In this document: piece after piece, positions 8,486 to 59,503 of the stretch | How the letters are laid out: every line of letters starts with the position of its first letter | Numbering within the stretch: position 1 is the stretch's first letter | IMG/VR virus record: IMGVR_UViG_3300023179_003795 | Coordinates: 1 to 64,000 of that record | Reading direction: 5' to 3' (one strand) | DNA: 64,000 bases | From: a virus | Taxonomy: Duplodnaviria; Heunggongvirae; Uroviricota; Caudoviricetes | The notes under the pieces: generated by a model | Seen by the model: the letters and a program-made list of their open reading frames with translations, nothing else | Database searches by the model: none | Told to the model about the DNA's origin: nothing | Position numbers and translations under genes: made by a program

Positions 8486-8511
8486 AAAACCCCTTTCATT
8501 GGGGTTTTTTT
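8486..8511 (+). terminator. Rho-independent terminator (aaaacccc-tttcatt-ggggtttt + T-run)
   Basis: Perfect 8-bp GC-centred stem with a 7-nt loop followed by TTTTTTT, directly after the stop of 7495..8478. Confidence 0.6.
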
Positions 8512-8534
8512 ATGTTTTAAACTATTTATATTCG

Positions 8535-8975
8535 ATGAAAAAGATTAAATTAACTGAACAAGATTTAACAAATATAGTTAAAAGAGTAATATCGGAGGAT
8601 GAAAATTCAAAAAAAGGTAAACTATTTATTCCAAGAAAAATTGATGAAAGAAAGATTGAACATCAAAAAATAATCGCTGGTGAAGTAGAAAAGATTAAAA
8701 AAAGTCCTTTTGGTTCAATATCAAAAAAATTTTTATTTGAGTGGTTACAGGAAAATAATTTAGAACAAGAACTAAAACTTTCTTACAAAGGTTCATCTTT
8801 AGGTGAAGTAGGTATGACATCATATGATAATTCAAAAGGTGAAGTTACCCTATATTTAGAATCAAAAGTAACATCTTTAGGTAATGTAGGGATACGTTTT
8901 AAAATATCCGACATTCAAATAGGGTATGTTGAACCAAATGTAATGGAAGATGATAAATTTTATCCAATAGATTAA
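8535..8975 (+). CDS. Hypothetical protein carrying the N-terminal leader (MKKIKLTEQDL ... KKGKLFIPRKIDERK)
   Basis: The track ORF starts at 8499, but that Met lies inside the terminator hairpin. The ATG at 8535 follows actatttatattcg and gives the conserved MK.I.LTE leader. Confidence 0.6.
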   Translation: MKKIKLTEQDLTNIVKRVISEDENSKKGKLFIPRKIDERKIEHQKIIAGEVEKIKKSPFGSISKKFLFEWLQENNLEQELKLSYKGSSLGEVGMTSYDNSKGEVTLYLESKVTSLGNVGIRFKISDIQIGYVEPNVMEDDKFYPID

Positions 8976-8977: not shown

Positions 8978-9451
8978 ATGAAAATACTTATAACTGAAGA
9001 ACAAAAAAAGAAGTTATTCATCCCAAGAAGGATTGATGAAAGAAAAGAACAATTTAAAAAAGAATTTTCTGAAAAAACCAAAGAATTATTATCTCATTTT
9101 AATATAACTGAAATAGTAAATCATGGTCGTATTGATGATTATGAAAATGAAATATCTGGTGAAGATATTGAAGAAGGTTATAGTAAAATTGTTATTGATG
9201 GTAAAAATTATTATGGATTTCCAAATTGGGAATTGGTTGAAGATTTAATCAATAACTGGGAAGAAATGTTAGCAGGATATTTAAATATGATTATACCACA
9301 ACCATCGGATGAAAGTATAAGTAAATCACAACCAAATATTGTTGGTAGAATGTTTAGGGTAGATATTACCCCATCAAAAATAGATATTAGTTTTTCTTGC
9401 TCAATTGTAGATTACATAAATAAAAAAGGTAATGAAACCATTACCCTTTAA
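8978..9451 (+). CDS. Hypothetical protein carrying the N-terminal leader (MKILITEEQKKKLFIPRRIDERK)
   Basis: 157 aa, starting 2 nt after the previous stop. The leader is identical in type to those at 23018..23410 and 30520..31389. Confidence 0.6.
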   Translation: MKILITEEQKKKLFIPRRIDERKEQFKKEFSEKTKELLSHFNITEIVNHGRIDDYENEISGEDIEEGYSKIVIDGKNYYGFPNWELVEDLINNWEEMLAGYLNMIIPQPSDESISKSQPNIVGRMFRVDITPSKIDISFSCSIVDYINKKGNETITL

Positions 9452-23017: not shown

Positions 23018-23410
23018 TTATAGTTTATATGTTTTACTATCATTCCTTAATTCACTTACTTCGTAATCAAAAGACACTAATAATTTATTTTCTTCAGTTA
23101 TATCTATATCACCCCATATGTGGAATATACCATCAATTCGATCAGCAATCCCTTCAATTAATTTATAAACCGGAGTTTCAAACTCATATAATTCACGGTG
23201 ATTATTACCCCCATCAAAGACACCATGCATATACCAATTCCATTCGTCAGGAGTTGTACTCATATCAAATCGAACACTTGTTTCATTATCTTTTATATAT
23301 TGAAGAACAGGATTCATTCCAATTTCAGATAAATATTGTCTATCCCTTTCATCAATTCTCCTGGGGATAAATAACTTCTTTTTTTGATCTTCACTAATAA
23401 TAATTTTCAT
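23018..23410 (-). CDS. Hypothetical protein carrying the N-terminal leader (MKIIISEDQKKKLFIPRRIDERDRQ)
   Basis: 130 aa. The start is embedded in the reiterated terminator-promoter cassette; the first codons are near-identical at the DNA level to the start of 30520..31389. Confidence 0.6.
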   Translation of the reverse strand: MKIIISEDQKKKLFIPRRIDERDRQYLSEIGMNPVLQYIKDNETSVRFDMSTTPDEWNWYMHGVFDGGNNHRELYEFETPVYKLIEGIADRIDGIFHIWGDIDITEENKLLVSFDYEVSELRNDSKTYKL

Positions 23411-23467: not shown

Positions 23468-24184
23468 TTATATTAACATTTTCAATCCATCCTTTTCACA
23501 TATATACCCATCCGTATTATTAAGTATCATTTTATTATCAAAGATATGGACATTATTTTCAACCACACAAATCATATAGTCAATATTATGATACAATTTA
23601 TTTATACCATTATATTTAATCTCATATGAATTATCATCATTTAATACGATTGATGAACAAGTTTTAATTTGAGCCTTGAATTCTTTACCATTCTTAATAT
23701 TCTTAATGGTAATGTCATAACCACCAATCATATCATTCAAATCACCTAATTTACCAACACTAATTACTTCATAACCACCTTTAGATTCGAAATGTTTTTT
23801 TAATTTGACTACAACTAAATCTTCTTTTTTACCACCTTTAGATGACGTGTATTGGATTTTATCAGTTATTTTAGGTAACATACCAATCCAATGCCATTTA
23901 TCACTTAATACGTAATCCATCATAGTTTCATACCCTTCTTTAGTTGATGGGTTGAAATTAATCTTAGTGAGGGTTTCATCGACTATTATACCATAAGCCA
24001 AAAAATTAGTATTGATATAATTTAATATACTTTCCTCCTCACATTTATTTGTTTTAAATATTCTTGGTTGTCTATACCCTCCCACTTCTTTTAATAGTTG
24101 TGGATGGTGAGCTTCAAATATCCTTATGTAGTCGTTTTTGAATATCTTAAAACCAATGGTTTCTTTTAATTCTTTCCAGTTCAT
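23468..24184 (-). CDS. Hypothetical protein
   Basis: The track ORF (to 24274) begins inside a palindromic terminator hairpin. The start at 24184 (MNWKELKETIG...) follows tgtataaatattaaatatATG (TATAAATA). Confidence 0.5.
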   Translation of the reverse strand: MNWKELKETIGFKIFKNDYIRIFEAHHPQLLKEVGGYRQPRIFKTNKCEEESILNYINTNFLAYGIIVDETLTKINFNPSTKEGYETMMDYVLSDKWHWIGMLPKITDKIQYTSSKGGKKEDLVVVKLKKHFESKGGYEVISVGKLGDLNDMIGGYDITIKNIKNGKEFKAQIKTCSSIVLNDDNSYEIKYNGINKLYHNIDYMICVVENNVHIFDNKMILNNTDGYICEKDGLKMLI

Positions 24185-30304: not shown

Positions 30305-30523
30305 ATGAAAAATCAATATAAACAAAGACAGAGACAGATTGAAAAATCAATTAAAGGTGATCATATTCAAAATCAAGACTATTTCTTAGATTTAATGATT
30401 TTACAAGAAAAACGTAAGAAAAAAGAAAGTAAACCCAGATTGGTTTTAAAAAATGGTCAATTAAACATTAAAAGATTGTTTAATAATGGGGTTCCTTTTA
30501 GTTGGGAAGATAACCCCCTTTAA
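30305..30523 (+). CDS. Hypothetical basic small protein
   Basis: 72 aa, starting 4 nt after the previous stop. Confidence 0.4.
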   Translation: MKNQYKQRQRQIEKSIKGDHIQNQDYFLDLMILQEKRKKKESKPRLVLKNGQLNIKRLFNNGVPFSWEDNPL

Positions 30524-31389
30524 TGGGAGTTGTAGGTTTCTAATAATTCCCTTATTTCAATTAATTGTTCTAATTTAAGTTCTTCGTATTTAACCGGAAA
30601 AGATGTTTCTTCTGTATTGTATTTATACCCACCATATACTACAACTTCAACATGATCAGAATAAAATTGTTCAATTAAGGCAACTTCATTTTCTTCATCT
30701 TCAGGACTATACCCATAAACAATTGAATTACCACCCAATTCACCCATACTTATAAAACCTTCTTCTTCTTCAATTATTTCTTTAATCTCAGAAATATATT
30801 TTTGTTTTAGTTCTTCAGCCTCAATCTTTCGTTGATCAATTCTTCTAGGGATAAATAATTTACCTTTTTTAGATTGTTCCGATTCAGTTAGTGACATCAT
30901 TTTAATTAATTCATCATCTCTATATAAACCTTTAAACACTAAATTACCACGTATATTATATTCTTCCCATATACCATTTTTTAAATCATCTTTAAATGAA
31001 CCCCTTTCATATAATTTCCCATTTCCATAATATTCTTCCCATACACCATCTCTTTTACCATTAATATAACTTCCTTTATATTTTAATTGTCCATCATAAT
31101 GATAATATTCCCATATACCTTCTTTTTTATCATCTTTAAATAAACCTTTAGACCATAATTGTCCATTTTTATGATACCTTTCCCATATACCAATTTTCTT
31201 ACCATCATGTGTATATTGATTAATATGTTTCCCATCTACGATGGGTTGTTCCTTATTCCATTGGATAAATCGGGAATTCTCTCCTGATAATCTTCTAGGA
31301 ATAAATAATTTACCTTTTTTAGATTGTTCTGATTCAGTTATTGGTATGAATAATTTCTTTTTTTGTTCTTCAGTTATAATAATTTTCAT
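30520..31389 (-). CDS. MORN-repeat protein with N-terminal leader and an internal second leader copy
   Basis: 289 aa starting MKIIITEEQKKKLFIPITESEQSKKGKLFIPRRLSGENSRFIQWNKEQPIVDG, followed by 5-6 MORN repeats, a second LTESEQSKKGKLFIPRRIDQRK and an acidic C-terminal domain. About 90 aa are identical to part of 3298..5610. Confidence 0.75.
   Translation of the reverse strand: MKIIITEEQKKKLFIPITESEQSKKGKLFIPRRLSGENSRFIQWNKEQPIVDGKHINQYTHDGKKIGIWERYHKNGQLWSKGLFKDDKKEGIWEYYHYDGQLKYKGSYINGKRDGVWEEYYGNGKLYERGSFKDDLKNGIWEEYNIRGNLVFKGLYRDDELIKMMSLTESEQSKKGKLFIPRRIDQRKIEAEELKQKYISEIKEIIEEEEGFISMGELGGNSIVYGYSPEDEENEVALIEQFYSDHVEVVVYGGYKYNTEETSFPVKYEELKLEQLIEIRELLETYNSH
31083..31345 (-). repeat. Inverted copy of 4377..4639
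   Basis: See the paired feature. Confidence 0.8.
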
Positions 31390-31442
31390 ATCTATATAAA
31401 TACTTCAGAACATAAAAAAACCCCAATAAAGGGGTTTTAATT
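31390..31442 (-). promoter_or_regulatory. Terminator-promoter cassette, second copy
   Basis: Identical over about 68 nt to 23395..23462, including the hairpin aaaacccc-aataaa-ggggtttt and gtatttatatagatATG. Confidence 0.55.
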
Positions 31443-32387
31443 CTATTTAGATTTTTTTAACATCATTTTCTTATATCTTTGTCCTTTAACAGCCAAAGTG
31501 TGTGTATCTTTTATGTTAGTATCACTATATTTTTTAAATAATTGAATGGTTTTATTAAACATTCCAATCATTAATTTAATATCAGCCAAAGCGTTATGCC
31601 ATTCATCAATGTTTATTTTAAAGGCTGGTACCACAACACCCATAGAAGTTGAATAATACTTCTTTTCTTTCATTCTTGGAGTTCCATCAGGATTTAACTT
31701 AGGTTGTTTTGTTTTCCAATCCAAATCAGGTTCCATTACATTCCCATCAGGTCCTTTAACAGGTGTTAATAACTTACCTAAAAATTCACCAGCCAATTGA
31801 TTTCCACCTTTTTTTAATGACTTTAACATTGGTAAAAAGAATAATTTTAATATGTTATTTGTATCTAATACTGAAACATTTAATGGTTTTAATCCATATA
31901 GTTTCATTCGTGTATTAACCATTTTCATATCAAATGGTGCGTTATGAGCAATTAATATTGGTTTATCATATGAATTAACAAAGTTTGAAAAGTTTTCCAA
32001 TAAACTTTTTTCATCATAATAACTTCTTGTTCCGGGTGTTTCACCAAACCTTGTCATTTTAAGAACATCTCTTGGATCTTGAAACCTCTCACTAACCTTA
32101 ATCTTAGACCTCCAATTTTCATATTCAGAAGTTCCAGGTTTCATTCTTTTTTCAATATTGGGTAATAACTTAACTTTTTCGTAAAACTTGTCTAATACGT
32201 TAAAATTATTAAACTCACAAACCAAAGCCGCTATTTCTGTTAATTGTTCTGTTCTTGGTGAAAACCCTGTTGTTTCCGTATCAAAAAAGATAAGTGTATT
32301 ATCATTTAACCCTTCAATATAAACCAATACATCTTCAATTGACATACCGAAAAATCTACCTTTTTTTAATGATTTTTTCATAACCAC
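31443..32387 (-). CDS. DEDDh 3'-5' exonuclease (DnaQ/epsilon-like)
   Basis: 314 aa with Exo I IFFDTETTG, Exo II IAHNAPFDMKM and Exo III HNALADIKLM. Confidence 0.8.
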   Translation of the reverse strand: MVMKKSLKKGRFFGMSIEDVLVYIEGLNDNTLIFFDTETTGFSPRTEQLTEIAALVCEFNNFNVLDKFYEKVKLLPNIEKRMKPGTSEYENWRSKIKVSERFQDPRDVLKMTRFGETPGTRSYYDEKSLLENFSNFVNSYDKPILIAHNAPFDMKMVNTRMKLYGLKPLNVSVLDTNNILKLFFLPMLKSLKKGGNQLAGEFLGKLLTPVKGPDGNVMEPDLDWKTKQPKLNPDGTPRMKEKKYYSTSMGVVVPAFKINIDEWHNALADIKLMIGMFNKTIQLFKKYSDTNIKDTHTLAVKGQRYKKMMLKKSK

Positions 32388-35204: not shown

Positions 35205-36233
35205 TCACCAGTAACCTGAGGTGCTACCCTTAACAAGACCCGATTTATTTAATCTACACGCCCAATACCCTGCGGTCATTCTATCTTTCTTTTTAGGACA
35301 ATTGTGTCTTGCTGAAAAACTCTTTCTTGCTTTAGAATTACCTGTTTTCGCTTTTAAACCACCTTTTTTATCACCAAATGTAATCTTTTTTATATTACCT
35401 GTTGATGGGTTTTTAACATATACAACATACTTCTTACCTGAACCAGAGTTTCTTTTAATCTTACCCAATGGTGGATGTTTCTTTTCCTTTTCTTCAATGA
35501 TACTTTCAACTAATCCTTGTGATAAATCTGTCATATATTCATTCATTTCATTAGCATAAGTTTTACTATTTAATGTTCCTGTATAATAATCAGATTTTTC
35601 AAAATCAATAAAGTTTTCATAAGACAAATCACCCCAACCTTTTTCTTTAAGATATTCTTCAATTTCATCAACATCTACCTCACCACTAATATCATCATCA
35701 TCATACTCCCCACCATCATATTCAATTAAAAATACATCTAATGGAACTACCTCACCTCTAAACTTACCAAATCTACCAATATCAGTAGTTTCAAATAATT
35801 CTTCATCGTAATCATTTAATTCAATTGAACCATTATCATATAATCTTCTTGTTTCAGATAATAAATCAATATGGGCTTCACTACCTGATCTGTATATACT
35901 TTCATTAACAGATATACCATTTATTAAATGATATTTTAATTCTTCACTTATTACTTTTTTCATACCTATACTTTCATTTATATTTTTATTCCTTAATTCA
36001 TCCAAATATTTTTCAATACCATCACTATCTTCACGATCAAATACTTTTAATAATTTAACATTTTTAGTTGATATGGATTTACGATCCCCACCTTTTTTAA
36101 TATAAACCAATCTTTCATCCAATGCGTGTAATGGCACATCTTGGTATCTATATTTTTCATTGAAGTATCTCAATGGAATCATTATTTCTATTACCGCCGT
36201 TTTATTAGTCATATATGTCTTTATTATCTGCAC
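35205..36233 (-). CDS. Hypothetical protein with an acidic low-complexity core and a basic Cys-containing C-terminus
   Basis: 342 aa with EYDGGEYDDDDISGEVDVDEIEEYL and a C-terminal ...SFSARHNCPKKKDRMTAGYWACR. It overlaps the upstream gene by 29 nt; alternative starts are at 36212 and 36182. Confidence 0.5.
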   Translation of the reverse strand: MQIIKTYMTNKTAVIEIMIPLRYFNEKYRYQDVPLHALDERLVYIKKGGDRKSISTKNVKLLKVFDREDSDGIEKYLDELRNKNINESIGMKKVISEELKYHLINGISVNESIYRSGSEAHIDLLSETRRLYDNGSIELNDYDEELFETTDIGRFGKFRGEVVPLDVFLIEYDGGEYDDDDISGEVDVDEIEEYLKEKGWGDLSYENFIDFEKSDYYTGTLNSKTYANEMNEYMTDLSQGLVESIIEEKEKKHPPLGKIKRNSGSGKKYVVYVKNPSTGNIKKITFGDKKGGLKAKTGNSKARKSFSARHNCPKKKDRMTAGYWACRLNKSGLVKGSTSGYW

Positions 36234-37596
36234 TCATATTTATTATATAATATTTTTGACCTTTATATGTCCAAGTTATTGGTTCCGCTTTAGCGTCAAT
36301 ACAATATGTTGGATAATCTTTTACTAATCTATCTATATCAAAATAATTATCATAGATAAATAACATCCCAAGTAAACCATCAATATTACTATATTTTGGT
36401 GGTTGATTACCTGTTCCTTTATATTTATTTTTGTCATAAAACCCAACCGGATCTTCCATAAATTCTTTTTTTAAGTCATTAATTTCAGGTGATTTTTCAA
36501 TTTCAGCGTCGGTAAGATTATCAATATCGTATTCATTAAAAAATCTAAAACGACTACTATCCATCAATATATCATTAAATAAATCATCCCAAGAAAAATA
36601 TCTTAAAATTTTATTTTCACCAACAAATTTAATTAAATTATTTGTTTTGGTTTTACTTGAATTTAAAATATCGTATTTATCCATATCCTCTATAACATCA
36701 CCTATTGTTTCATCATTAACAACAATATATTCCCCAATAGTTCTTTGACCCCTATTAAGTTTTTTACGTAAATAAAATTTTGAGTCTTCAATAAACATAA
36801 TTTCAGGAAAATAATTATCACCAAGAGATTTAGTCCAATTATCAAATGCTTTAGCCATTAATTGTTTAGGTTTATCAATTATATTAGTTTTCCAATAGTT
36901 TTTTATACTACTACTAACTTTTTTTGGGTATATAATACTACCAGCATAATCATCATATTCAATTTTATCCACATCACCAAATTTAACCGTTAATCTATCA
37001 TCTATAGCATTATATCCTTGAACCTGACCAAAAGCATCAACAAATAACGCTGTTTTATAGTCATTACCATTACTAACTTTATTTAAGATAAAAAACAAAT
37101 TACCTTTTTCCATATAATCTTCGTATGTTGATTCATCTGTAACACACCATCTCGTTCCTTTACCATAAAAACAAGAAGCCTCCGCTGTTGATGGATATAA
37201 TATGACAATACCATCAAACTCATCAACCATATCGATATCATTCTTTAATTGTATCTTTTTGTTCGACCTTTGAAAAGCCTTTTCAGCCGCCATTAAAAAT
37301 GAATCTATATCATTATATGAATACAAATCAGTTGATAACTCAGTATTTTTAAATCTTTGTGGATAGTTATCTAATACTAGTAAAGCATCTCCAACCTTAT
37401 CCCAATATTCGTTATCAAAATATCTAACATTTCTAATACCAAACTCTTCAACAAATCTCTGATATAACCAATAGAGATATTTTTTATTTGGTGAAGGATC
37501 ATAGGGATATAACTCAGATATTAGTTTTGATTCTAATGTGGTTGATTCTGGTATATTATACTTTTTTAAAAATTTTTCTAAAAAATTTTCTTCCAT
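36205..37596 (-). CDS. Hypothetical protein; member 6 of the C-x-YG-x-G-T-R-W-C paralog family
   Basis: 463 aa. Core is VILYPSTAEASCFYGKGTRWCVTDESTYEDYMEKGNLFFIL, with an N-terminal DPSPNKKYLYW motif. Confidence 0.7.
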   Translation of the reverse strand: MEENFLEKFLKKYNIPESTTLESKLISELYPYDPSPNKKYLYWLYQRFVEEFGIRNVRYFDNEYWDKVGDALLVLDNYPQRFKNTELSTDLYSYNDIDSFLMAAEKAFQRSNKKIQLKNDIDMVDEFDGIVILYPSTAEASCFYGKGTRWCVTDESTYEDYMEKGNLFFILNKVSNGNDYKTALFVDAFGQVQGYNAIDDRLTVKFGDVDKIEYDDYAGSIIYPKKVSSSIKNYWKTNIIDKPKQLMAKAFDNWTKSLGDNYFPEIMFIEDSKFYLRKKLNRGQRTIGEYIVVNDETIGDVIEDMDKYDILNSSKTKTNNLIKFVGENKILRYFSWDDLFNDILMDSSRFRFFNEYDIDNLTDAEIEKSPEINDLKKEFMEDPVGFYDKNKYKGTGNQPPKYSNIDGLLGMLFIYDNYFDIDRLVKDYPTYCIDAKAEPITWTYKGQKYYIINMSADNKDIYD

Positions 37597-38082: not shown

Positions 38083-40290
38083 TTATTTACTTTTAAAGTG
38101 ACTTAACATTGTATAAACTCCAGCACTTTTTATAATTGTCATAAATGCTTCCATAAAATCAACATTTCCTAACAAACTATTTATTAAGTCTGAATAAGCC
38201 GGTATTAATGTAGCGAAAGCCGTAATTGATAACATTTCATTTTTAAAATCTTTCAATGATTTATTTTTTCTTAAATAAACAACAATCATAGCAATTACTA
38301 AATTAGTTAATTCAAACGAATTTAATGGTTGAACAGTGTATTGTTTAATAAGTGATGTTAAATTTCTTATTAAAGCATTTATCCCACCACCAAATGTCAT
38401 TAAAAATCCAATATCCAATCCAAAAGTTTTTTTAAAATTTTTTAATATATCATCTATATTATCATTTATCTTACCTTCATTAATATTTTTAGTTAATGGT
38501 AATTCTTCATTATATAATTTTTTAAACTCTTCCCACACTTCTTTACCTTTTAAAGGTATTGTTAAATCAAAATACATTAGATTTAAAGGTCCATATTCTG
38601 ATATATCATCAGGGAAACTATCCTTTATTCTTAAAATCATATTATCGTAAATATTTTGCATATTGTCACTATCACTAAAATCAAATTCTTCCGAATCATT
38701 AAATACATCCCAATAAGTAACAAACAAATTAATTGTATTACCAGCATTTATATCACCTTCACCCCACCTACCAATCATATTACGGGTAGTTAAATCATAT
38801 TGATTTATTTTTTTACCATCAATAATAGGTTGCATTTCATTCCATTCTTTTAATCTTTCGTCAATTCTTCTCGGTATAAAAAGTTTACCTTTTTTAGGGT
38901 GTTCAGATTCATCTATGGTTTCAATGGTATATTCCTTATCAGTTGTTTCAAGTCCCAATTTATATATTTTTTCAATTAAACCACTTCTTCTCATAGTTTT
39001 AAAAACAAGATTTTCAGTCGCCATTTCACCACCTTTATCCAAACCAGCCTTCCTATATTTCTTTATCTTATCCTTTAACTTATCCAAAGCCTTTCTGGTT
39101 TCCTCATATTTTTCCTCTTTATATGACTCAACAATTCTATTATATTCACTTTCAAATTGTCTTACCTTTTTCTTAATAGTTTCTCTATCAATTTTTACAT
39201 CTTGAGGTTTTGGTTTCTTAACCCACTCATCATTCATAACGGAATATATACCAGTACTTTCGTGTGGTTCATCTTTATCCTGAGCATATAATTCAACATC
39301 ATATCCTTTTATCTTAATATTATGATTGTCATTCCAAACCGCTTTTTTAGCGTCAAAATACTTCTTAATTAATTCCTTATCATCAAACTCATTAAAGTCT
39401 ATAAGAACGTGTAAATCCACATCCGAATATTGACTCCAATTATAATTAGCCAAAGAACCTGTAAATATAATATCTTCAATAGGTGCTTCCACCTCCAATG
39501 ACTTATGAAATTCTTGTCCGATAGCAACTAATGTGTCTTTTATCTTATTTTTTAATTTACCATCTTCATCCCATACTTTAGGGTTTAATTCCTTTTTAGG
39601 TTCAAATGATTTTAATATATTATCTTTATCTTCCATTTGTTCTTTTATTACCATATTATCGTATTCATCTTTCCAATTCATACTTTCACTAACACCACCA
39701 TCCTTATTATAAAAAATATGAGCAATTTTTTTAGACATATCATAAATAGTTTTACCCGCTACCTTACCATTCATAAAATAATCAACCCATAAACCATCAA
39801 CTTTACCATTAATATAATTACCAATACTACTTAATAAATTATTGTTTTCAAATTGGTTATTAAATGGGTAATACGTTTTCCATATACCAACAGGGCTACT
39901 ATCAACATAACTACCAATTTCTTTTAAATTACCATTTTGATGATACATTTTCCATAAACCATCAAGCTCACCATCTTTTGTTTGTCCATCATATTGGATT
40001 TGACCATTAAGGTAAAATGTTTGATACACACCTCCCCATAAACCATTTTTATATTCTATTCTAGACGTTATTTTATTTTTTTCAAACTCAACCCATAAAC
40101 CATCTTTTTTACCATTAAGTGTATATTGATTTATCTGAACACCATCTACGATGGGTTGTTCCTTATTCCATTGGTTGAATCTACTATTTTCACCGGATAA
40201 TCTACGAGGAATGAATAATTTACCTTTTTTAGATTGTTCCAATTCAGTTAGAGGTAACTTTTTAAATAATTTTTTTTTTACATCACTCAT
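38083..40290 (-). CDS. Multidomain protein: leader + MORN repeats + minimal nucleotidyltransferase (GS-x-SDVDL) domain + second internal leader + C-terminal hydrophobic region
   Basis: 735 aa. N-terminus is LPLTELEQSKKGKLFIPRRLSGENSRFNQWNKEQPIVDG followed by MORN repeats. Mid-protein FTGSLANYNWSQYSDVDLHVLIDFNEFDD matches the pol-beta-type NTase motif G[SG]-x9-13-D-x-D. Later comes HPKKGKLFIPRRIDERLKEWNEMQPIIDG, and the C-terminal about 100 aa are hydrophobic (FLMTFGGGINALIRNLT ... LVIAMIVVYL). Confidence 0.75.
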   Translation of the reverse strand: MSDVKKKLFKKLPLTELEQSKKGKLFIPRRLSGENSRFNQWNKEQPIVDGVQINQYTLNGKKDGLWVEFEKNKITSRIEYKNGLWGGVYQTFYLNGQIQYDGQTKDGELDGLWKMYHQNGNLKEIGSYVDSSPVGIWKTYYPFNNQFENNNLLSSIGNYINGKVDGLWVDYFMNGKVAGKTIYDMSKKIAHIFYNKDGGVSESMNWKDEYDNMVIKEQMEDKDNILKSFEPKKELNPKVWDEDGKLKNKIKDTLVAIGQEFHKSLEVEAPIEDIIFTGSLANYNWSQYSDVDLHVLIDFNEFDDKELIKKYFDAKKAVWNDNHNIKIKGYDVELYAQDKDEPHESTGIYSVMNDEWVKKPKPQDVKIDRETIKKKVRQFESEYNRIVESYKEEKYEETRKALDKLKDKIKKYRKAGLDKGGEMATENLVFKTMRRSGLIEKIYKLGLETTDKEYTIETIDESEHPKKGKLFIPRRIDERLKEWNEMQPIIDGKKINQYDLTTRNMIGRWGEGDINAGNTINLFVTYWDVFNDSEEFDFSDSDNMQNIYDNMILRIKDSFPDDISEYGPLNLMYFDLTIPLKGKEVWEEFKKLYNEELPLTKNINEGKINDNIDDILKNFKKTFGLDIGFLMTFGGGINALIRNLTSLIKQYTVQPLNSFELTNLVIAMIVVYLRKNKSLKDFKNEMLSITAFATLIPAYSDLINSLLGNVDFMEAFMTIIKSAGVYTMLSHFKSK

Positions 40291-40446
40291 ATAATGTATA
40301 AATATGTTGAATATCTATTTATTTTAAAGTTTAGGTTGAATATATTTCCACTATGAACACAATTAGTTAGAATAATTGGACTTCAAGTGTTTCAAAAAAA
40401 ATCCCAATTAAAAACACAAGAATTAATTATAATGAATTATTAGAAT

Positions 40447-41095: not shown

Positions 41096-41892
41096 AAAGA
41101 CTTACAAAACAACAACGCTATTATAGGAAAAATAAAGCGAAGTATAAGAAGTGGAGAAAAAAAAGAGTTAAAAAGTTAGTTGAAAATGTTGAGGTGACTA
41201 ATGTTAAAAAACTCAAAAAGAAAATACACAATAAGAAAAAACTAAACAAAAAAAGAAATAAAAATAAAGTTGTTAGGAAAAAAAACGCCACTTATTTTAT
41301 TGCAACAATCATGAATAATAAACCATTCAAAATAATTAATAGATATGTCGACTACTCTTGGGCTTCTAAAAAATGGGATCAAGTATTGGAAGAACAAAAA
41401 AACCTATTCTATCCCGGACTTAAATACCCCTTAATGTTTTTATATAAGGTAAAACCGGGTGAAGAAAATACAATCACCCAAAGAAATAGTATTGGTAAAA
41501 TTATTGAAACCAAAATACCTGGATATAAAATTATATTCCAAGACACATATTATAACGAAAGAAAAATATACTTTAAAAACAAATTAGTTAGAGTTCCAGC
41601 ATACTTCATACTTCAACTATTAAATGTAAATAATAATATTAAACAATGTTTTCTTATTAAGAATAAAATCTGTGTGGAAGATGAAGGTAAGTATTTTGTA
41701 TTCTCTTGTAAAGATGCCGATGAAGCATCATCAATTAAAAATAGACTAAGAGAAAAATATATGGAATTAGGTAAAACTAATGTCCTATTCTTTAATGATG
41801 TAAATACTATATCAATGAAAGAAGAAATCTTTGATAGTATAGTTAAACAAGGAATATGTAATATAGAATATCTTTATAGGGGTGATAATTAA
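41086..41892 (+). CDS. Hypothetical protein with an extremely basic N-terminal 90 aa (K/R-rich)
   Basis: 268 aa beginning KQQRYYRKNKAKYKKWRKKRVKKL ... KKKLNKKRNKNKVVRKKNA, which suggests nucleic-acid binding. Confidence 0.5.
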   Translation: MALKRLTKQQRYYRKNKAKYKKWRKKRVKKLVENVEVTNVKKLKKKIHNKKKLNKKRNKNKVVRKKNATYFIATIMNNKPFKIINRYVDYSWASKKWDQVLEEQKNLFYPGLKYPLMFLYKVKPGEENTITQRNSIGKIIETKIPGYKIIFQDTYYNERKIYFKNKLVRVPAYFILQLLNVNNNIKQCFLIKNKICVEDEGKYFVFSCKDADEASSIKNRLREKYMELGKTNVLFFNDVNTISMKEEIFDSIVKQGICNIEYLYRGDN

Positions 41893-43673
41893 TTATCGTC
41901 AAATAACTTATAGTTATATAATAAACTATAAAACTCATCAACATTATTTAAAATATAATGACTATAACCATTTTCAGTACTTAATGTGACAGATGTTGTT
42001 AAATCATCCATATCAATACCATTTATTCTAAAACTAATATCTTTGTTTCTTGGTAATTTATACCACTTATCAATTCGATATTTTTCAGTTATCTTATCAA
42101 ACATTTCCTTATATTGTGAGAAATTTTCATTTTCCTCAATCTTATCTTTTATTTTTTCCAAGTTTCGTTCCACTTCACGTTGAAATCCTTCTTCGTCAAA
42201 AGCATTCCAATCAATCATTTCGTATGAATTTTCAGACCAACCACCAACACTATCATATTCAGTTATTCTATATAGTAAAGACTCAATTGTACTCTTCTCC
42301 GGTTGGTGTTCTTCAAATAATTTAATTAAATTATTTATGGTTGTTTGATACTCACCAAAACATTTTTTACTTGATTTTTTAAAACCATATTTTTCAAAAT
42401 AATTACATAATTCACTTTCAACAGTATCTCTAACCCCTATCTCAGCCGCTCTATCCATTTCCGATTGGTATTCATATGATATATCACTAGTTTCCCTATC
42501 AAACATTTTTTGTAAGGTTTTAGCAATATTACTTTTTACTTCATCATCACTTAAATCTGCGTTGACATATGTGGGTAAAATATATTTAAGTATTTCTCTT
42601 AATAATTTAGTATTCTCATCATTAAACTTATCTATTATATAACCTTCATCCCACTCTGAATCAATATCCATAGGGTAAAAATGATAATCATTATAAGAAC
42701 TATCAAGTATACTTAAAAACCATTTATCGTCATCAGATAAATCAAATACTTTTTTATAATCATCTAACCCATCAAAACTAATTTCCACTATGGATTCACC
42801 CCTATTCTCTTCATTTTTTTCAAAATCAATAACAATATCTGAAGATAGTATCTGACTTGACGTATCTTCACCTGATATATACCCCCTTAATAAATCAATA
42901 ATAGGTAATTGCTCAGTAAGTTTATTTATTACATTTGTTAATTTAGGGAACTTCTCATATAAAAAATCAATACCCCTTTCTTTATCGAGTGAATCAAATA
43001 CATATTTATTTAGTTTTTTACCATCTTTTTCTAAATATAACGCAACTTTATTTCCCTTGTTTTTTTTATCAATAAAATAATATAAAATACCGTCCCTTGT
43101 ATGTTTATCATAATGATAACGATCATTTTTCATTGAAGTACACCATTTGGTTTCAAAACCATAAAAACAAGATGATTCCCATGTTAAAGGTCTAACAACC
43201 AAATAATTTGAATCTCCAAATATTTTATAAGCACCTTTTTTAGCGATTCTTTCTTCTTCAGATTTTGATTTAGTTTTTTCTAATACTTGTAACATAGCAA
43301 GAAGATAAAAAGGTATTGAATATGAATTAATGTCTTTAGGGGTTTTCTTTATCTTTTCAACGTCAATAAGATTTTTACCTTCCAAATTAACACCACTATC
43401 AATAAGTTTTTCTTCAAATTGTTTTACAATATCATCATCAATTCTTTTATAATTATTTTCAAAAGGTATAATAATTTTAGTTATCATATCTTCAATCTTA
43501 TCATAATCTTTAAACTTTAAAGAAGAATCTAAATAATTACTAATCCATTCAGCGTATTTACCTTGTGATGTTGGATCAATAGAAAACATTCTATCAATGA
43601 ATTCACCATTGGTAGAATGTTTCTTTTTTGTTTTTTCAATAATTTCTTTTTTACCCTCTAATAAAATATCCAT
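41889..43673 (-). CDS. Hypothetical protein; member 7 of the C-x-YG-x-x-T-K-W-C paralog family (long form)
   Basis: 594 aa. Core is VVRPLTWESSCFYGFETKWCTSMKNDRYHYDKHTRDGILYYFI, with an N-terminal DPTSQGKYAEW motif and a long acidic/aromatic C-terminal extension. Confidence 0.7.
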   Translation of the reverse strand: MDILLEGKKEIIEKTKKKHSTNGEFIDRMFSIDPTSQGKYAEWISNYLDSSLKFKDYDKIEDMITKIIIPFENNYKRIDDDIVKQFEEKLIDSGVNLEGKNLIDVEKIKKTPKDINSYSIPFYLLAMLQVLEKTKSKSEEERIAKKGAYKIFGDSNYLVVRPLTWESSCFYGFETKWCTSMKNDRYHYDKHTRDGILYYFIDKKNKGNKVALYLEKDGKKLNKYVFDSLDKERGIDFLYEKFPKLTNVINKLTEQLPIIDLLRGYISGEDTSSQILSSDIVIDFEKNEENRGESIVEISFDGLDDYKKVFDLSDDDKWFLSILDSSYNDYHFYPMDIDSEWDEGYIIDKFNDENTKLLREILKYILPTYVNADLSDDEVKSNIAKTLQKMFDRETSDISYEYQSEMDRAAEIGVRDTVESELCNYFEKYGFKKSSKKCFGEYQTTINNLIKLFEEHQPEKSTIESLLYRITEYDSVGGWSENSYEMIDWNAFDEEGFQREVERNLEKIKDKIEENENFSQYKEMFDKITEKYRIDKWYKLPRNKDISFRINGIDMDDLTTSVTLSTENGYSHYILNNVDEFYSLLYNYKLFDDN

Positions 43674-43859
43674 TTACTTTAATACTTTAGTTTCTTTATA
43701 TACGGCCTTTTTAATCTGTTCCCTTTTTTTAACACATTCTTTAGTGAATACTTGTCTTTCCCTAAGTTCTTTTACAACACCAGTTTTCTCAAACTTCCAC
43801 TTAAACTTCTTTAAAGCCCTATCTAACCCACCTTCTTTTCTTACATCTATTATTATCAT
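43674..43859 (-). CDS. rpsU: 30S ribosomal protein bS21 homolog (phage-encoded)
   Basis: 61 aa MIIIDVRKEGGLDRALKKFKWKFEKTGVVKELRERQVFTKECVKKREQIKKAVYK, aligning with bacterial bS21 ([42 protein letters not shown]...). Confidence 0.85.
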   Translation of the reverse strand: MIIIDVRKEGGLDRALKKFKWKFEKTGVVKELRERQVFTKECVKKREQIKKAVYKETKVLK

Positions 43860-43860
43860 A

Positions 43861-44235
43861 TTATCTCATTAATAACACACCTATAATTATTCCAGGTAAT
43901 ATACCATAAGTAAAATATAAAGTTTTTTTCATTACACCCATAGTTTTATAATCTGTTATAATACCCTTATAGTTTTCTTCGTTTTCTTTAAACTTATCAA
44001 TCACCTCTTCATGTCCGGTAATTATTATACTATCCTTTGTAATTACATCTTTATAATCCATAATTACAGAATCTTGTTGTTTAATAATTTCAGTTTTAGT
44101 TGAATCCTGATACTTTAATTGTTTTATGTTGTGAGCAATATTAATTAATTCAGGTCTTGTAAAACACGTATCCACCTTTTGTGAATAAACATTTATCGTA
44201 ATAAATGTAAATAATAACATTAATAATTTTCTCAT
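43861..44235 (-). CDS. Secreted/membrane protein with signal peptide and C-terminal TM (o-spanin-like position)
   Basis: 124 aa with a signal peptide LLMLLFTFITINVYSQ and a C-terminal LYFTYGILPGIIIGVLLMR. It overlaps the upstream gene by ATGA. There is no clear lipobox. Confidence 0.35.
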   Translation of the reverse strand: MRKLLMLLFTFITINVYSQKVDTCFTRPELINIAHNIKQLKYQDSTKTEIIKQQDSVIMDYKDVITKDSIIITGHEEVIDKFKENEENYKGIITDYKTMGVMKKTLYFTYGILPGIIIGVLLMR

Positions 44236-46673: not shown

Positions 46674-48680
46674 TCATTTAACTATTTCTTCTTGCTCTTT
46701 TTTTTTTATTGATACAACAATCTTTTCATCAACATAATTAACAAAAAGTGTTTCACCTTCTTTTATTTCACCCCTTAAAATTTCTTCCGAAATAGTATCT
46801 TCAATATGTTTTTCAATACTACGTTTCAACGGTCTTGCCCCATTTTCAGAATCAAACCCTTCATTCACAACATACTCTTTCATCTTTTCAGATATTTCAA
46901 GTGTATATCCTAATCCAGATATTCTATTCTTCAATCCCATAATTTCCACATCAAAAATTTGGAAGATATGTTCTTTCTCTAATGGATTGAATACAATCAC
47001 ATCATCTAATCTGTTTAAGAATTCAGGTTTAAAGAACTTCTTCAATTCTTTCATTAAAGTAGAATCAATCTTTTCCTTAGAAACACTCTTTTCGTTAGAG
47101 AATCCAATACCCATACCTTGTTCTCTAACTTCCCTTGTTCCCAAGTTAGAAGTCATAATAATAATAGTATTACGAAAATCAATTTTTCTACCAGAAGCAT
47201 CTGTCATAAAACCCTCATCAAATGTTCTTAATAACAAGTTGAAAATATCAGGATGAGCCTTTTCTACCTCATCAAACAATACAACCGAATATGGTTTTCT
47301 TCTAACTTTTTCAGTTAATTCACCACCCTCATCATAACCAACATAACCTGGAGGTGATCCAATTAAACGTGATTGGTTAAACTTCTCAGCGTATTCATTC
47401 ATATCTACACGGATAAGATTATCTCTACCCTCAAATAAATACTCATTTACCGCCTTAGTTAATTGAGATTTACCCACACCTGTCGGTCCTAAAAAAAGGA
47501 ATACACCTGATGGTTTATTTGGATTTTTAACACCCGCTCTTGTTCTTTTAATTGCTTTTGACAATTTAGAAATTGCTTCAGGTTGTCCAATAATCTTTTT
47601 ACCTAACTCAACTTCAATGTTTAATAATTTTTGACCTTCGTTAGTTGTAATCTTAGATAACGGAATGTCAGTCATAATTGAAATGATGTCAGCAATGTCC
47701 GTGTCATTTACAATCGTTTTATTCAATTTCATTGAATCTTGCCAAATCTTACGTTTTAACCCCAATTCTTGATTAACAACATCTTCTTCTTTCTTGATTT
47801 TAGCCGCCAATTCAAATTCTTGAGTTTTAACAACTCTCATCTTTTCCTTTTTAATATCTTCCAATTCTTTTTCAAGTTTGGTAATATCTTCAGGGATAAC
47901 AATATCTTTAATCTGAGTTCTTGAACCTGATTCATCTAACAAATCAATTGCTTTGTCTGGAAGAAATCTATCCGACATATAACGAACTGACAAATTAACA
48001 CAAGCCTTAATTGCTTCATCAGTATATTTTACATTGTGATAATCTTCATAGATACCACGAATGTTATTTAGGATTTGAAGGGTTTCTTCAGGGGTTGGTT
48101 CATTTACCACCACTTTTTGAAATCTACGTTCCATAGCCCCATCTTTTTCAATAGACTCACGATACTCATCAAGAGTGGTAGCACCTATACATTGCATCTC
48201 ACCACGAGCCAACGCTGGTTTAAACATATTAGCGACATCCAATCCTTGCCCACCTGCACCCATAATAGTATGGACTTCATCAATGAAAAGAATAATGTCT
48301 TTACTCTTAGACAATTCAGCCAAAAGAACCTTAACCCTTTCTTCTAATTGACCACGATACTTAGTTCCCGCAACCAAAGCACCGGGTTCAAGTTCAATAA
48401 CCCTTTTGTTTAATAAAGTTCTTGGGGCTTTCTTTTCGTAAATTCTCATAGCCAAACCAGCAACGATTTGTGATTTACCAATACCCGGATCTCCAATAAG
48501 TACTGGATTGTTTTTTTTACGTCTTGTAAGAATTTGAGCAATACGTTCAATTTCTTTGTCACGTCCAATAACCGGATCTAATTTACCCTGTTGAGCCAAA
48601 GCGGTTAAATCCTTACCAAAAGTATCCAATATTGGAGTTTTGTCTGACTTCTTTTCTGAACCATCCATTGTTTCAATCAT
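46674..48680 (-). CDS. ClpA/ClpC-type double-AAA+ ATPase (no N-domain)
   Basis: 668 aa with two P-loops (GDPGIGKSQIV; GPTGVGKSQLTKA), two Walker B motifs (ILFIDEVH; VVLFDEVEKAH), sensor/arginine blocks and a ClpB_D2-small-like C-terminus (GARPLKRSIEKHIED). Confidence 0.85.
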   Translation of the reverse strand: MIETMDGSEKKSDKTPILDTFGKDLTALAQQGKLDPVIGRDKEIERIAQILTRRKKNNPVLIGDPGIGKSQIVAGLAMRIYEKKAPRTLLNKRVIELEPGALVAGTKYRGQLEERVKVLLAELSKSKDIILFIDEVHTIMGAGGQGLDVANMFKPALARGEMQCIGATTLDEYRESIEKDGAMERRFQKVVVNEPTPEETLQILNNIRGIYEDYHNVKYTDEAIKACVNLSVRYMSDRFLPDKAIDLLDESGSRTQIKDIVIPEDITKLEKELEDIKKEKMRVVKTQEFELAAKIKKEEDVVNQELGLKRKIWQDSMKLNKTIVNDTDIADIISIMTDIPLSKITTNEGQKLLNIEVELGKKIIGQPEAISKLSKAIKRTRAGVKNPNKPSGVFLFLGPTGVGKSQLTKAVNEYLFEGRDNLIRVDMNEYAEKFNQSRLIGSPPGYVGYDEGGELTEKVRRKPYSVVLFDEVEKAHPDIFNLLLRTFDEGFMTDASGRKIDFRNTIIIMTSNLGTREVREQGMGIGFSNEKSVSKEKIDSTLMKELKKFFKPEFLNRLDDVIVFNPLEKEHIFQIFDVEIMGLKNRISGLGYTLEISEKMKEYVVNEGFDSENGARPLKRSIEKHIEDTISEEILRGEIKEGETLFVNYVDEKIVVSIKKKEQEEIVK

Positions 48681-48749: not shown

Positions 48750-49109
48750 TTAAAATATTTTAATTTTAGCATCAACTTCCTTTAATTCACCCCAATTACC
48801 CATATAGGTGACACCCCTCACTTTTCTATTGTCAATCCAAATGTATTCATCACCATCTTTACATCTTGGTTTATCCGTAATCAATTGGTGGTATTTGAAG
48901 TTGTGTTCATTCAACCAATCCAAAGTTATTTGTCTATCTTTAGTTTCTCGAGCAGTAAAGAATACTATTGTATTTCCCTCACTATACCACTTATTTGTGG
49001 TTTCCTTAGCATTTAAAAATGGTTTAGCGGTAGCGAATAAATGACTTTGTTCGTTTGGAATATCATCACAGATAGTTCCATCAATATCTATAAGAATAAC
49101 TCTACTCAT
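48750..49109 (-). CDS. HAD-superfamily phosphatase (small, DxDGT type)
   Basis: 119 aa with motif I ILIDIDGTICDD, FFTARE and a C-terminal D-containing block. Size and motifs resemble polynucleotide 3'-phosphatase-like HADs. Confidence 0.55.
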   Translation of the reverse strand: MSRVILIDIDGTICDDIPNEQSHLFATAKPFLNAKETTNKWYSEGNTIVFFTARETKDRQITLDWLNEHNFKYHQLITDKPRCKDGDEYIWIDNRKVRGVTYMGNWGELKEVDAKIKIF

Positions 49110-49891
49110 TACCCAAAATATTTAAATAAATCAATTGCGTTTGAACGTATCTTATTAAGACTTTTTTGTTTAATCTGACGAATACGTTCTTTTGTCAAAT
49201 CAAACTCATCTCCAATCGCTTCTAATGTCATTGGTTCTCCATCTATCCCAAAATACATTTTAATAATGGCTTTTTCTTTATCATCCAATTTAGATAATAG
49301 TTTTTCCAACTCTCCTTTGAGATTATCTTGTCCGTTATTTAATTGATGATCCGGCATTAAAGCGTCATCATCTTCAATTATATCCAATAGTTCATCACCA
49401 TCTTCATTGATAATATCAAATATAGATTGTGTTGTTGGAAACATTTCAACCATTTCTTCATCAGAATCTTTGTTTTCTTTCTTAGCCTTTAAATAGTCAT
49501 TTATCTGATTAACAGGGATACGAATATTTCTTGAATGTTCGTTGATAGATTCAATGATAGATTGTTTAATCCACCATACAGCGTATGATATAAATCTATA
49601 ACCTTTAGTTCTATCAAACTTTTCAATCGCTTTTAATAAACCTAAATTACCTTCCGCAATAAGATCGGATAAAGGTATTCCGTTATTTTGATATGTTTTA
49701 GCGATTGATATAACAAATCTTAGATTTGCTTTAATCAATTCTTCACGGGCTTTATTATCCCCACTTAGAACTCTTTCAGTTAGTTCGGCTTCTTCTTCCT
49801 TTGAAATAACGTCAGCGTATTTTCTTATTTCCTTTAAATAAGAACTAATTTGAGATTGATCAATAAAAAAAGTATTGGCAGTATTTGTCAT
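49109..49891 (-). CDS. Sigma-70 family RNA polymerase sigma factor (regions 2-4; RpoS/SigF-like size)
   Basis: 260 aa with region 2 (LRFVISIAKTYQNNGIPLSDLIAEGNLGLLKAIEKFD), region 3 and a region 4 HTH (MTLEAIGDEFDLTKERIRQIKQKSLNKIR). Has an acidic linker insert. Confidence 0.85.
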   Translation of the reverse strand: MTNTANTFFIDQSQISSYLKEIRKYADVISKEEEAELTERVLSGDNKAREELIKANLRFVISIAKTYQNNGIPLSDLIAEGNLGLLKAIEKFDRTKGYRFISYAVWWIKQSIIESINEHSRNIRIPVNQINDYLKAKKENKDSDEEMVEMFPTTQSIFDIINEDGDELLDIIEDDDALMPDHQLNNGQDNLKGELEKLLSKLDDKEKAIIKMYFGIDGEPMTLEAIGDEFDLTKERIRQIKQKSLNKIRSNAIDLFKYFG

Positions 49892-59501: not shown

Positions 59502-59503
59502 TT

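Follow-up and report, generated by a model that had tools for sequence, protein, structure and literature searches.

Large polypeptides of phages and conjugative elements that join unrelated domains have been described as 'polyvalent proteins', for which delivery with the phage DNA and proteolytic release of the modules have been predicted (Iyer et al. 2017, PMC5512222). In phage T4, the S77 prohead protease gp21 cuts after Glu, and its substrate Alt is cut at ITE-6 and LTE-619 (PMC5694885), and the internal proteins of T-even phages are highly diverse cargoes that have only a capsid-targeting sequence (CTS) in common (PMC3012670). MORN repeats have also been reported in marine phages and endolysins (PMC9238414). 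The gene analysed here invites comparison with all of these systems. It is located in the first 64,000 nucleotides (hereafter the window) of the IMG/VR record IMGVR_UViG_3300023179_003795, which was assigned to the Caudoviricetes, and encodes a mosaic protein of 735 amino acids (aa) with MORN repeats, a nucleotidyltransferase (NTase) module called NT, and two copies of a short recurrent peptide called the tag.

The modules of the protein follow the order tag, MORN, NT, tag, Cmid, linker and Chyd. An earlier note on this DNA had proposed much the same layout (a leader, MORN repeats, a GS...DxD signature, a second leader and a hydrophobic C-terminus), and the intact open reading frame (ORF), a MORN_2 match above the cutoff and the repetition of the leader bear it out. 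In fold and chemistry, NT belongs to a known kind; the novelty lies in a large, phage-only and unannotated NT family that is repeatedly joined to cell-wall enzymes, together with a clade-specific tag system organising module shuffling. The interpretation preferred here, with a probability of roughly 0.4, is that the protein is a late-made, head-packaged and processed effector that would deliver nucleoside monophosphate (NMP) transferase activity.

The NTase signature lies within the peptide FTGSLANYNWSQYSDVDLHVLIDFNEFDD (aa 276-304), in which 10 residues separate S279 from D290. Since the pattern G[SG]-x9-13-D-x-[DE] arises in 26% of shuffled versions of the 735-aa protein, the bare motif is no better than chance and the NTase assignment rests on profile and structure evidence. 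NT matches phrog_36119 with E=2.2e-48. Its AlphaFold (AF2) model (predicted local distance difference test score (pLDDT) 91; predicted template-modelling score (pTM) 0.80) has an alpha-beta-turn-beta-alpha-beta core followed by a helical bundle, with the NTase fold present around GS...DVD; nearly all of the top 50 Foldseek matches in the PDB are Pol-beta NTases, and family members in BFVD resemble the model with template-modelling (TM) scores of 0.80-0.89. The Pfam family NTP_transf_2 (PF01909) reaches 17.3 bits on the 735-aa protein (E=0.006), below its gathering cutoff of 21 bits; the relatives P0077 (25.2 bits) and P0070 (22.3 bits) pass this cutoff, and 12 of 95 family members match at E<=1e-4 (best 4.4e-12).

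The candidate catalytic residues occupy the expected elements of this model: the T-G278-S279 turn follows strand E57-63, D290-V-D292-L opens strand E76-83, and E333 lies on strand E116-124 (V-E333-L). In an alignment of 146 diverse family members, mostly 25-57% identical (A3), there is no variation at the Gly and Ser, at either Asp or at several basic positions of the helical domain. The Gly-Ser and Asp signature and E333 are also invariant in the family profile (A1), and the Glu is conserved in at least 90% of the sequences in A3 and in a further alignment (A4). In A1 and A3, the phage family has two motifs of its own, ANYNWS in a loop and GE.S.ENLVFK.LRR in the helical domain. Thus, model, profiles and conserved residues agree, and the proposal of the earlier note that this is a minimal, Pol-beta-type NTase holds for the predicted core. 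Because such invariance would hardly be expected of a domain that neither binds nucleotides nor catalyses a reaction, NT is probably a catalytically active enzyme dependent on nucleoside triphosphates (NTPs). It is very unlikely that NT is instead a catalytically dead scaffold, used as a structural or adaptor domain in large virion or lysin proteins: fusion into very diverse large proteins would suit such a role, and activity has been shown for no family member, but the signature, the basic residues and the Glu are retained across all this divergence.

With regard to its relatives, the best full-length PDB matches of the NT model are antibiotic NTases of the ANT/Lnu type (6xz0, 3jyy, 5g4a and 6un8), and the Foldseek matches include AAD(9), LinB, AadA, ANT(4'), DrrA, a CCA enzyme, a minimal nucleotidyltransferase (MNT), terminal uridylyltransferases (TUTases) and GlnE; the ANT/Lnu matches are weak (E>=5.5e-3, TM about 0.25, 9-13% identity). 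The best PDB match of the family profile is the AMPylase DrrA (3nku, E=0.0047), for which about 85 aligned residues cover helix-strand-GS-loop-DxD-strand-helix, and Pfam SidM_N reaches 20 bits on the 735-aa protein (E=4.5e-4; cutoff 27 bits). These weak matches suggest that NT is closest in structure to the two-domain NTases of the ANT/Lnu type, and in sequence profile to the AMPylase DrrA/SidM. The ANT/Lnu-like size and two-domain plan, together with a protein AMPylase as the closest solved sequence relative, point to an enzyme that places an NMP on a hydroxyl, of a protein or of a small sugar-like molecule, rather than to one that makes cyclic oligonucleotides.

A signalling enzyme similar to cGAS and CD-NTases, which would make or mimic cyclic oligonucleotides against host signalling, had been among the suggestions of the earlier note. 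The superfamily signature GS...DxD is common to both, and CdnG appears at Foldseek ranks 7 and 10 (E=0.036-0.075, TM 0.23-0.24), but it stands behind the ANT/Lnu enzymes and DrrA and matches no better than many unrelated NTases. No CD-NTase, RlaP, ANT or MNT family was matched in Pfam (list to E<=1), NCBIfam or PADLOC, the PADLOC output being limited to weak PDC-S09 matches (E=0.0046-0.022), and CD-NTase, RlaP and defence-system membership was rejected for this reason. Moreover, the 235 aa and four-helix bundle of NT are nearer to ANT/Lnu enzymes than to the larger, bilobed CD-NTases. Comparison with the three folds named in the earlier note thus recovered Pol-beta and MNT structures but no CD-NTase/cGAS-specific signal, and a signalling role is considered extremely improbable.

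An exhaustive profile search collected 5,254 NT cluster representatives at 50% identity, 2,796 of them at E<=1e-30, in which the module is found at the N-terminus, in the middle or at the C-terminus of proteins of 253-1,026 aa. The family is phage-specific and almost absent from cellular genomes, where 18 loci were detected among 185,579 prokaryotic species (one genome each), nearly all on contigs of metagenome-assembled or single-amplified genomes. Among deposited phages, the module is carried by, for example, Lak and other megaphages, cyanomyoviruses, the flavobacterial Maribacter phage Molly and Caulobacter phages. Their records carry no annotation or read hypothetical, 'nucleotidyl transferase domain' or 'aminoglycoside nucleotidyltransferase'; two cyanophage records name the homologue 'aminoglycoside nucleotidyltransferase' and 'nucleotidyl transferase domain containing protein', as record annotations only, and PHROG 36119 is listed as 'unknown function'.

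Among 95 diverse members, the commonest recognisable partners of NT are PG_binding_1 (13), Peptidase_M23 (8), tail lysozyme (2), VanY and glucosaminidase, followed by GNAT (3), NUDIX, a PolyA_pol head and ankyrin repeats; the majority of the partner regions have no match. Amidase_2 and GH19 occur as single examples, and a few large fusions gave only sub-threshold M91/DUF6782 hints. In the nearest outgroup phages (portal 57% identical), the counterpart gene encodes NT-M23-PG_binding_1 or NT-PG_binding_1-tail lysozyme and has a ClpB-like gene on its upstream side and, a few genes further downstream, TerL, a T4-type portal and an S77 prohead protease. In the window, the ORF at 20086-21042(-) carries at its C-terminus DUF5661 (2.5e-11), the orphan domain that is fused to NT in the protein P0059. 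A by-eye ParB-like/HExxH (P1 DdrB-type) reading of P0059 was dropped, as Pfam gave no support.

The tag is a peptide of about 20 aa with the consensus (I/L)-(T/S/D)-E-x-(E/D)-(Q/H)-x-KK(G)KLFIPR(R/K), and was located in six window genes by a six-frame scan and a motif hidden Markov model (HMM). It corresponds to the 'leader' of the earlier note, whose aa ~12-56 recur at aa ~458-500 (segment BLAST 55% identity; motif HMM E=4e-16 and 2e-15). The tag comes in two forms, a long one that continues into MORN or Cmid and a short one (…PRRID(E/Q)R) in front of other modules. In all 10 window copies, (I/L)-x-E, mostly ITE or LTE, stands 4-5 residues before the basic block, and across related contigs MK(I/L)(I/V)I(T/S)E... 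forms the exact N-terminus of six or more unrelated types of cargo. The tag was not found in distant NT fusions and is thus clade-specific; a search of a large protein database with a 42-aa tag peptide gave 4 fragments only, and a DNA-pattern scan of IMG/VR gave 9 loci only, which are informative on cargo diversity.

Signal-peptide and transmembrane calls were made from the Kyte-Doolittle (KD) and Hessa scales. With mean KD values of -0.84 (aa 1-35) and -0.98 (aa 36-70), the N-terminal region is strongly hydrophilic, and the signal-peptide reading of the 'leader' was rejected because the segment is hydrophilic, basic and recurs internally; it is a recurrent module-junction tag. The first approximately 20 residues of the second tag are predicted to be disordered (C-terminal model pLDDT <50; block means 28 and 32), a behaviour like that of a conserved short linear recognition motif. 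The copies mostly differ at synonymous sites, which indicates selection on the peptide itself, and an explanation of tag conservation at the DNA level, by recent duplication only, was rejected for most copies on this basis. One pair 26 kb apart, 4414 (in 3298-5610(+)) and 31308 (in 30520-31389(-)), is identical at 146 of 150 nucleotides over the tag and the MORN start, a sign that duplication or gene conversion took place very recently. Nested, truncated copies found at N-termini (KKKLFIP followed by ITESEQSKKGKLFIPRR) look like recombination scars; the MORN-lysozyme gene has one such truncated copy besides its three full tags. The small module in the second sister gene (Table 1) is a stand-alone tagged gene in two related contigs (L006 and L007), and 'tag120' of L006 is 70% identical to the C-terminal part of the sister protein.

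Table 1. The 735-aa gene, its modules and upstream element, and the other tagged genes of the window
Feature	Position	Strand	Basis or remark
Whole gene, 735-aa mosaic ORF	38083..40290	-	intact, ATG start; stop codon 38083-38085
Element TATTTATA	40297..40304	-	-14..-7 from ATG of the 735-aa gene; candidate late-class element
Truncated tag copy (KKKLFKKLPLTE), then full long-form tag (LPLTE followed by LEQSKKGKLFIPRRLSGENSRFNQWNKEQPIVDGVQINQY)	40123..40290	-	aa 1-56; motif HMM E=3.8e-16
MORN_2 (YwqK-type) repeat block	39673..40122	-	aa 57-206; PF07661 E=6.2e-10
NT module, predicted Pol-beta-type NTase core and four-helix C-terminal bundle, PHROG 36119	38920..39624	-	aa 223-457, 235 aa
G278-S279...D290-V-D292, nucleotide/metal-binding signature	39415..39459	-	aa 278-292; turn between model strands 1 and 2
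E333 (V-E-L-Y strand), candidate third catalytic carboxylate	39292..39294	-	alignment conservation and model strand
Second tag, short-to-long form (TIDE followed by SEHPKKGKLFIPRRIDERLKEWNEMQPIIDGKKINQYD)	38791..38919	-	aa 458-500; motif HMM E=2.1e-15
Cmid, small orphan alpha/beta module (GRWGEGD...WDVF...FDLTIPL)	38500..38790	-	aa 501-597; pLDDT 60-86
Predicted disordered linker, about 38 residues	38386..38499	-	aa 598-635; model residues 141-178 pLDDT <50
Chyd, clade-restricted, moderately hydrophobic all-helical C-terminal domain	38086..38385	-	aa 636-735; pLDDT about 70-80
Sister gene, three tag + MORN_2 blocks and GH24 phage lysozyme	3298..5610	+	MORN_2 1.5e-40, Phage_lysozyme 1.8e-22
Sister gene, tag + MORN block + tag + small module	30520..31389	-	motif HMM
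Small gene, tag at exact N-terminus (MKILITEEQKKKLFIPRRIDER...)	8978..9451	+	motif HMM; orthologues in L032/L033
Small gene, tag at exact N-terminus (MKIIISEDQKKKLFIPRRIDER...)	23018..23410	-	motif HMM; orthologues in L028/L034
Small gene, internal tag (…VISEDENSKKGKLFIPRKIDERK…)	8499..8975	+	true start probably ATG at 8565; similar genes in L030, L033, L035

The element TATTTATA just upstream of the gene is a candidate late-class promoter or initiation element. Within 40 nucleotides upstream of ORF starts in the window, TATTTAT was found at 17 of 59 (1.4 expected), and 13 of the occurrences begin at -11..-17, which leaves only about 4-8 nucleotides before the ATG. The genes preceded by TATTTAT(A) include those for the portal (15363(-)), TerL (17074(-)), the MORN-lysozyme (3298(+)) and Amidase_2, the tagged small genes, and 45659(-). 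In related contigs, TATTTATA stands at -12..-14 upstream of the orthologues in L006 and L007 and of the NT-hydrolase genes in L003 and L005. TATTTAT(A) may be a lineage-specific late promoter with near-leaderless mRNAs, or a translation-initiation element. The T4 late promoter TATAAATA was also considered for this role and was set aside in favour of the TATTTATA element; it occurs upstream of only 3 ORFs and as a 7/8 near-match at the target gene. In addition, an identical hairpin and TATTTATA cassette, consisting of a terminator-like hairpin AAAACCCCTTTATTGGGGTTTTTTT, then ATGTTCTGAAGTATTTATATAGAT, then ATG, is present at 23411-23470(-) and 31390-31450(-), that is, before the tagged genes 23018-23410 and 30520-31389, and a variant at 8440-8565(+) precedes a third tagged gene. 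Its presence before two different tagged genes suggests that the shuffled unit includes regulatory DNA besides the tag codons.

These features can be combined in a mechanism, according to which the mosaic effector would be expressed late by an uncultured jumbo T4-like phage. The tag would serve as a head-loading or processing signal comparable to the T4 CTS, through which the precursor would enter the prohead; an S77 (gp21-type) prohead protease would cut after the Glu of the ITE/LTE/IDE tripeptides, and the cleaved pieces would be ejected with the DNA. In the newly infected cell, where T4 Alt and 'polyvalent proteins' also act, the NT enzyme would bind an NTP and Mg2+ and move the NMP, probably adenosine monophosphate, to a hydroxyl of a host protein or of an envelope-related molecule. 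The accessory modules around NT, each headed by a tag, are clade-specific, and close relatives differ by their gain, loss and reordering.

Packaging and processing are favoured because I/L-x-E is present in 10 of 10 tags, gp21 cuts Alt at such sites, the cargoes are as diverse as those of a CTS, relatives encode an S77 protease, NT itself ends in a similar motif, and the late element is shared. NT ends in [IL]-x-E in 76% of members, against a background of 21%, and in 77 of 131 diverse members [ST]-[IL]-x-E stands at a fixed position, mostly directly ahead of the domain that is fused to NT next (further domains follow NT in 99 of the 131); this end could be a family-wide processing site. The late element and the fusion to wall-breaching enzymes fit the 'polyvalent protein' idea. 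Injection, on which the roles listed in the earlier note had been conditional, gains indirect support from the T4-type protease tripeptides at module joints, the sharing of the late-class promoter element and the fusions to wall-breaching enzymes in related phages, but delivery remains something that we infer.

Several observations weigh against this interpretation. Bare I/L-x-E sites are about as frequent as chance would predict in a 735-aa protein (10 sites against about 10 expected from a composition estimate), and the motif at the end of NT could simply be a helix cap. The best-conserved, basic half of the tag follows the proposed cut, unlike in the T4 CTS. An S77 prohead protease was not found in the window or in one flank, and is present only in the relatives L003 and L005, beside the portal. 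Free-standing NT homologues in the phages S-CRM01 and Molly lie in non-structural, nucleotide-metabolism neighbourhoods, a setting that gives the packaging model no help; no experimental study of any NT family member was found in the literature; and the late-class element fits a lysis role equally well. A broader version of the interpretation is more doubtful, namely that one peptide of about 20 aa is the universal 'load-and-cut' tag of the clade, by which cargo modules encoded singly or joined in polyproteins would enter the prohead, be separated by the S77 protease at ITE/LTE and be injected, and that NT is the founding member of a phage-only class, comprising more than 5,000 clusters, of injected NMP-transferases hitting a host protein or envelope component early in infection.

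The lysis role would place the protein inside the infected cell as a late lysis or envelope factor that is not packaged. NT would nucleotidylate a wall precursor or another envelope component and thereby weaken wall synthesis, the MORN repeats and helical C-terminus would localise the protein to the envelope, and it would cooperate with lysins. Comparable chemistry exists, as ANT/Lnu enzymes adenylylate sugar hydroxyls and zeta toxin phosphorylates UDP-N-acetylglucosamine, and the best full-length structural matches of NT (AAD(9), LinB and AadA) are antibiotic, amino-sugar NTases. The most frequent recognisable partners of NT bind or hydrolyse peptidoglycan, but wall domains are found in only about 15-20% of the family and the 735-aa protein carries no hydrolase. 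A tag and MORN cassette is fused to a GH24 lysozyme in the window, MORN repeats have been reported in phage endolysins (PMC9238414), and the promoter-like element is common to the lysozyme and Amidase_2 genes; however, the 735-aa protein has no export signal or transmembrane helix, and a fused NTase needs cytoplasmic NTPs whereas the hydrolases act in the periplasm. The C-terminus that would face the envelope is dispensable in one orthologue, and the tag at the head of many unrelated small proteins would be left unexplained. On balance, a lysis role is regarded as rather unlikely.

The neighbourhoods of the free-standing homologues are in line with a cytoplasmic, non-packaged enzyme for counter-defence or RNA repair. 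NT would then silence HEPN-type toxins by MNT-like AMPylation, or act as a CCA or terminal transferase mending tRNA ends with phage RNA ligases, while the tags and the MORN repeats would serve for interaction or oligomerisation. MNT antitoxins, a CCA-adding enzyme and TUTases are among the structural matches, but the Pfam list (E<=1) contains neither RlaP nor PolyA_pol nor any MNT family, and no meaningful PADLOC match was obtained. Within the family, fusions to a PolyA_pol/CCA head with an RNA-binding domain (1), NUDIX (1) and GNATs (3) are known, but the 735-aa protein is without an RNA-binding domain. Jumbo phages pair Pol-beta NTases (RlaP) with RNA ligases (PMC7824862), and two RNA-ligase-like genes are encoded in the window (56497-60795), but they are about 17 kb away from the 735-aa gene, whose upstream element is of the late class and which does not lie in an early or middle block. 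This explanation is judged unlikely.

The remaining modules show how readily the gene is rearranged. MORN_2 (PF07661) reaches 38.6 bits on the 735-aa protein (cutoff 29.6 bits) in two scoring stretches; about 5-6 units can be counted in aa ~59-206, three of them canonical (G..G.W..Y...G) by regular expression and the rest by eye, and the block weakly matches the MORN-rich LIC20035 adhesin. Cmid and Chyd have no relatives in Pfam, PHROG or the PDB (including profile searches against the PDB), and a homologue search with the C-terminal half returned close relatives only. The AF2 model of aa 458-735 is weak (pLDDT 62); in it, a disordered linker separates a small alpha/beta domain from a helical domain at the C-terminal end. 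The last approximately 110 aa are the sole net-hydrophobic part of the protein, so that the hydrophobic C-terminal helices seen in the earlier note stand as helices of moderate hydrophobicity, but not as a classical membrane anchor: a transmembrane C-terminus was rejected because no segment qualifies (19-residue KD maximum 1.49; best 19-residue windows +5.4 kcal/mol on the Hessa translocon scale). In relatives, Chyd is 75-100% identical and always C-terminal. It is dispensable in one orthologue (P0032 of L007), which stops 7 residues after NT and has no Chyd encoded within 8 kb.

About 35 relatives with the same module set are present in public metagenomes, and one protein (P0001, on a 161,854-bp metagenomic contig) is 100% identical. 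One relative has the automatic Joint Genome Institute (JGI) label 'YwqK antitoxin / predicted nucleotidyltransferase', in which the name 'antitoxin YwqK' reflects the MORN_2 repeat only. The domain combination, called novel in the earlier note, is thus without a published description that could be found, but is not unique to this phage. Relatives at 65-99% identity range from 711 to 1,256 aa, and MORN blocks, Cmid, NT and Chyd vary in number and order; NT, 87-97% identical among the mosaic relatives, is the only constant module. Copies of Cmid (42-57% identity) occur at other positions, including N-terminally behind a tag of their own, and the linker reads PLTKN here and PLTES in relatives. 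Compared with L006, synteny is near-perfect and most neighbours are 82-92% identical, whereas the accessory modules of the target gene are only about 50-55% identical and rearranged, which marks the gene as a local hotspot of change. As a separate observation, four paralogues of PHROG 17056 (unknown function) are encoded at 5613-7472(+), 9683-10462(-), 36205-37596(-) and 41889-43673(-); they have in common a motif like S-x-CFYG-x-x-T-x-WC, two of them flank the 735-aa gene, and they are 62-64% identical between relatives, versus 82-92% for most other neighbours.

The source is probably an uncultured, T4-like jumbo tailed phage. The window has a G+C content of 24-32% and encodes a T4-type portal (Portal_T4, 2.6e-67), TerL, a ClpB-like ATPase, UvdE, RNA-ligase-like proteins and a DruA-like protein; orthology to L006 adds a sigma-70-like factor (49109-49891) and a homologue of ribosomal protein S21. 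No deposited phage has a portal more than 40% identical to this one, but metagenomic contigs of 62-329 kb carry portals with 57% identity, and close relatives of the 735-aa protein are found on scaffolds of 287-312 kb. The ClpB/ClpA-type double-AAA+ chaperone (46674-48680(-)) is full-length, 51-93% identical within the lineage and located near the NT gene in L003, L005, L006 and L007. The S21 assignment concerns a 61-aa ORF (43677-43865(-)), which is 82% identical to an L006 gene with a Ribosomal_S21 Pfam match, so that the phage appears to encode an S21 homologue. The 391-aa protein at 27518-28693(-) matches Pfam DruA (Druantia defence protein A) above the cutoff (E=6e-13), a host-defence-type domain that is unusual in a phage. 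A 187-aa product (61672-62235(-)) has the precomputed Pfam annotation RE_Eco47II, a restriction endonuclease family, and its counterpart adjoins an AAA_33 kinase-like gene in L026; the ORF at 35205-36233(-) has a DUF5754-like/PHROG 7595 segment at its end.

The NT family is among the larger uncharacterised enzyme families specific to tailed phages. Its conserved catalytic residues, together with repeated fusion to peptidoglycan hydrolases, point to a nucleotidylylation step at phage entry or lysis that has probably gone unstudied. The tag is a candidate portable packaging or processing signal of a jumbo phage group, and the turnover of modules at one locus within a conserved region is typical of host-interface genes. 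If the proposed mechanism is correct, the tag would show how these phages shuffle and load their cargo and might serve to bring foreign proteins into capsids, a use to which the T4 CTS has been put, and NT would be a nucleotidylylating counterpart of T4 Alt, which would explain its frequent fusion to wall-breaching enzymes.

Among known systems, MNT/HEPN pairs and CD-NTases have the superfamily core and catalytic signature in common with NT, and the MNT antitoxins 8xeo, 7bxo and 7ae9 are among its structural matches; MNTs, however, are about 100-150 aa long and lack the helical domain, and no HEPN partner lies near NT. RlaP differs in that its family is not matched (Pfam, E<=1) and that the RNA ligases of the window are not adjacent. 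The ANT/Lnu enzymes (AAD(9)/ANT(9), AadA ANT(3'')(9), LinB/Lnu and ANT(4')) are closer in plan: they have about 235-265 aa, with GS, DxD and a third carboxylate in an N-terminal core and a helical domain behind it. The resemblance is structural only, as none of their families is among the Pfam or NCBIfam matches of the 735-aa protein, and they reside in resistance cassettes whereas the NT family resides in phages. The N-terminal AMPylation domain of Legionella DrrA/SidM, which is GlnE-like, is the best sequence-level relative with a solved structure, and the logic proposed for NT is like that of DrrA, which is delivered into its target cell and modifies a host protein there; type IV secretion and the eukaryotic target Rab1 belong to DrrA, and the match is below the Pfam cutoff.

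In comparison with MORN-containing phage endolysins, the same cassette is joined to a GH24 lysozyme in the window and in relatives, but the repeats of the 735-aa protein flank an NTase. Hallmarks of polyvalent proteins, such as a zincin-like metallopeptidase or MuF, were not found in the 735-aa protein (Pfam, PHROG), but it is likewise multi-domain, with MORN repeats, an NTase and two orphan modules, and in the NT family, as in polyvalent proteins, peptidoglycan-breaching domains are joined to protein- or nucleotide-modifying enzymes (NTase, GNAT). The tag has no sequence similarity to the T4 CTS and, unlike it, is also internal and present several times per protein. The proposed system nevertheless resembles that of T4 Alt, itself an ejected host-modifying enzyme, and of the internal proteins in having a T4-type portal in the window, a short N-terminal peptide on unrelated, fast-evolving cargoes and ITE/LTE at the joints.

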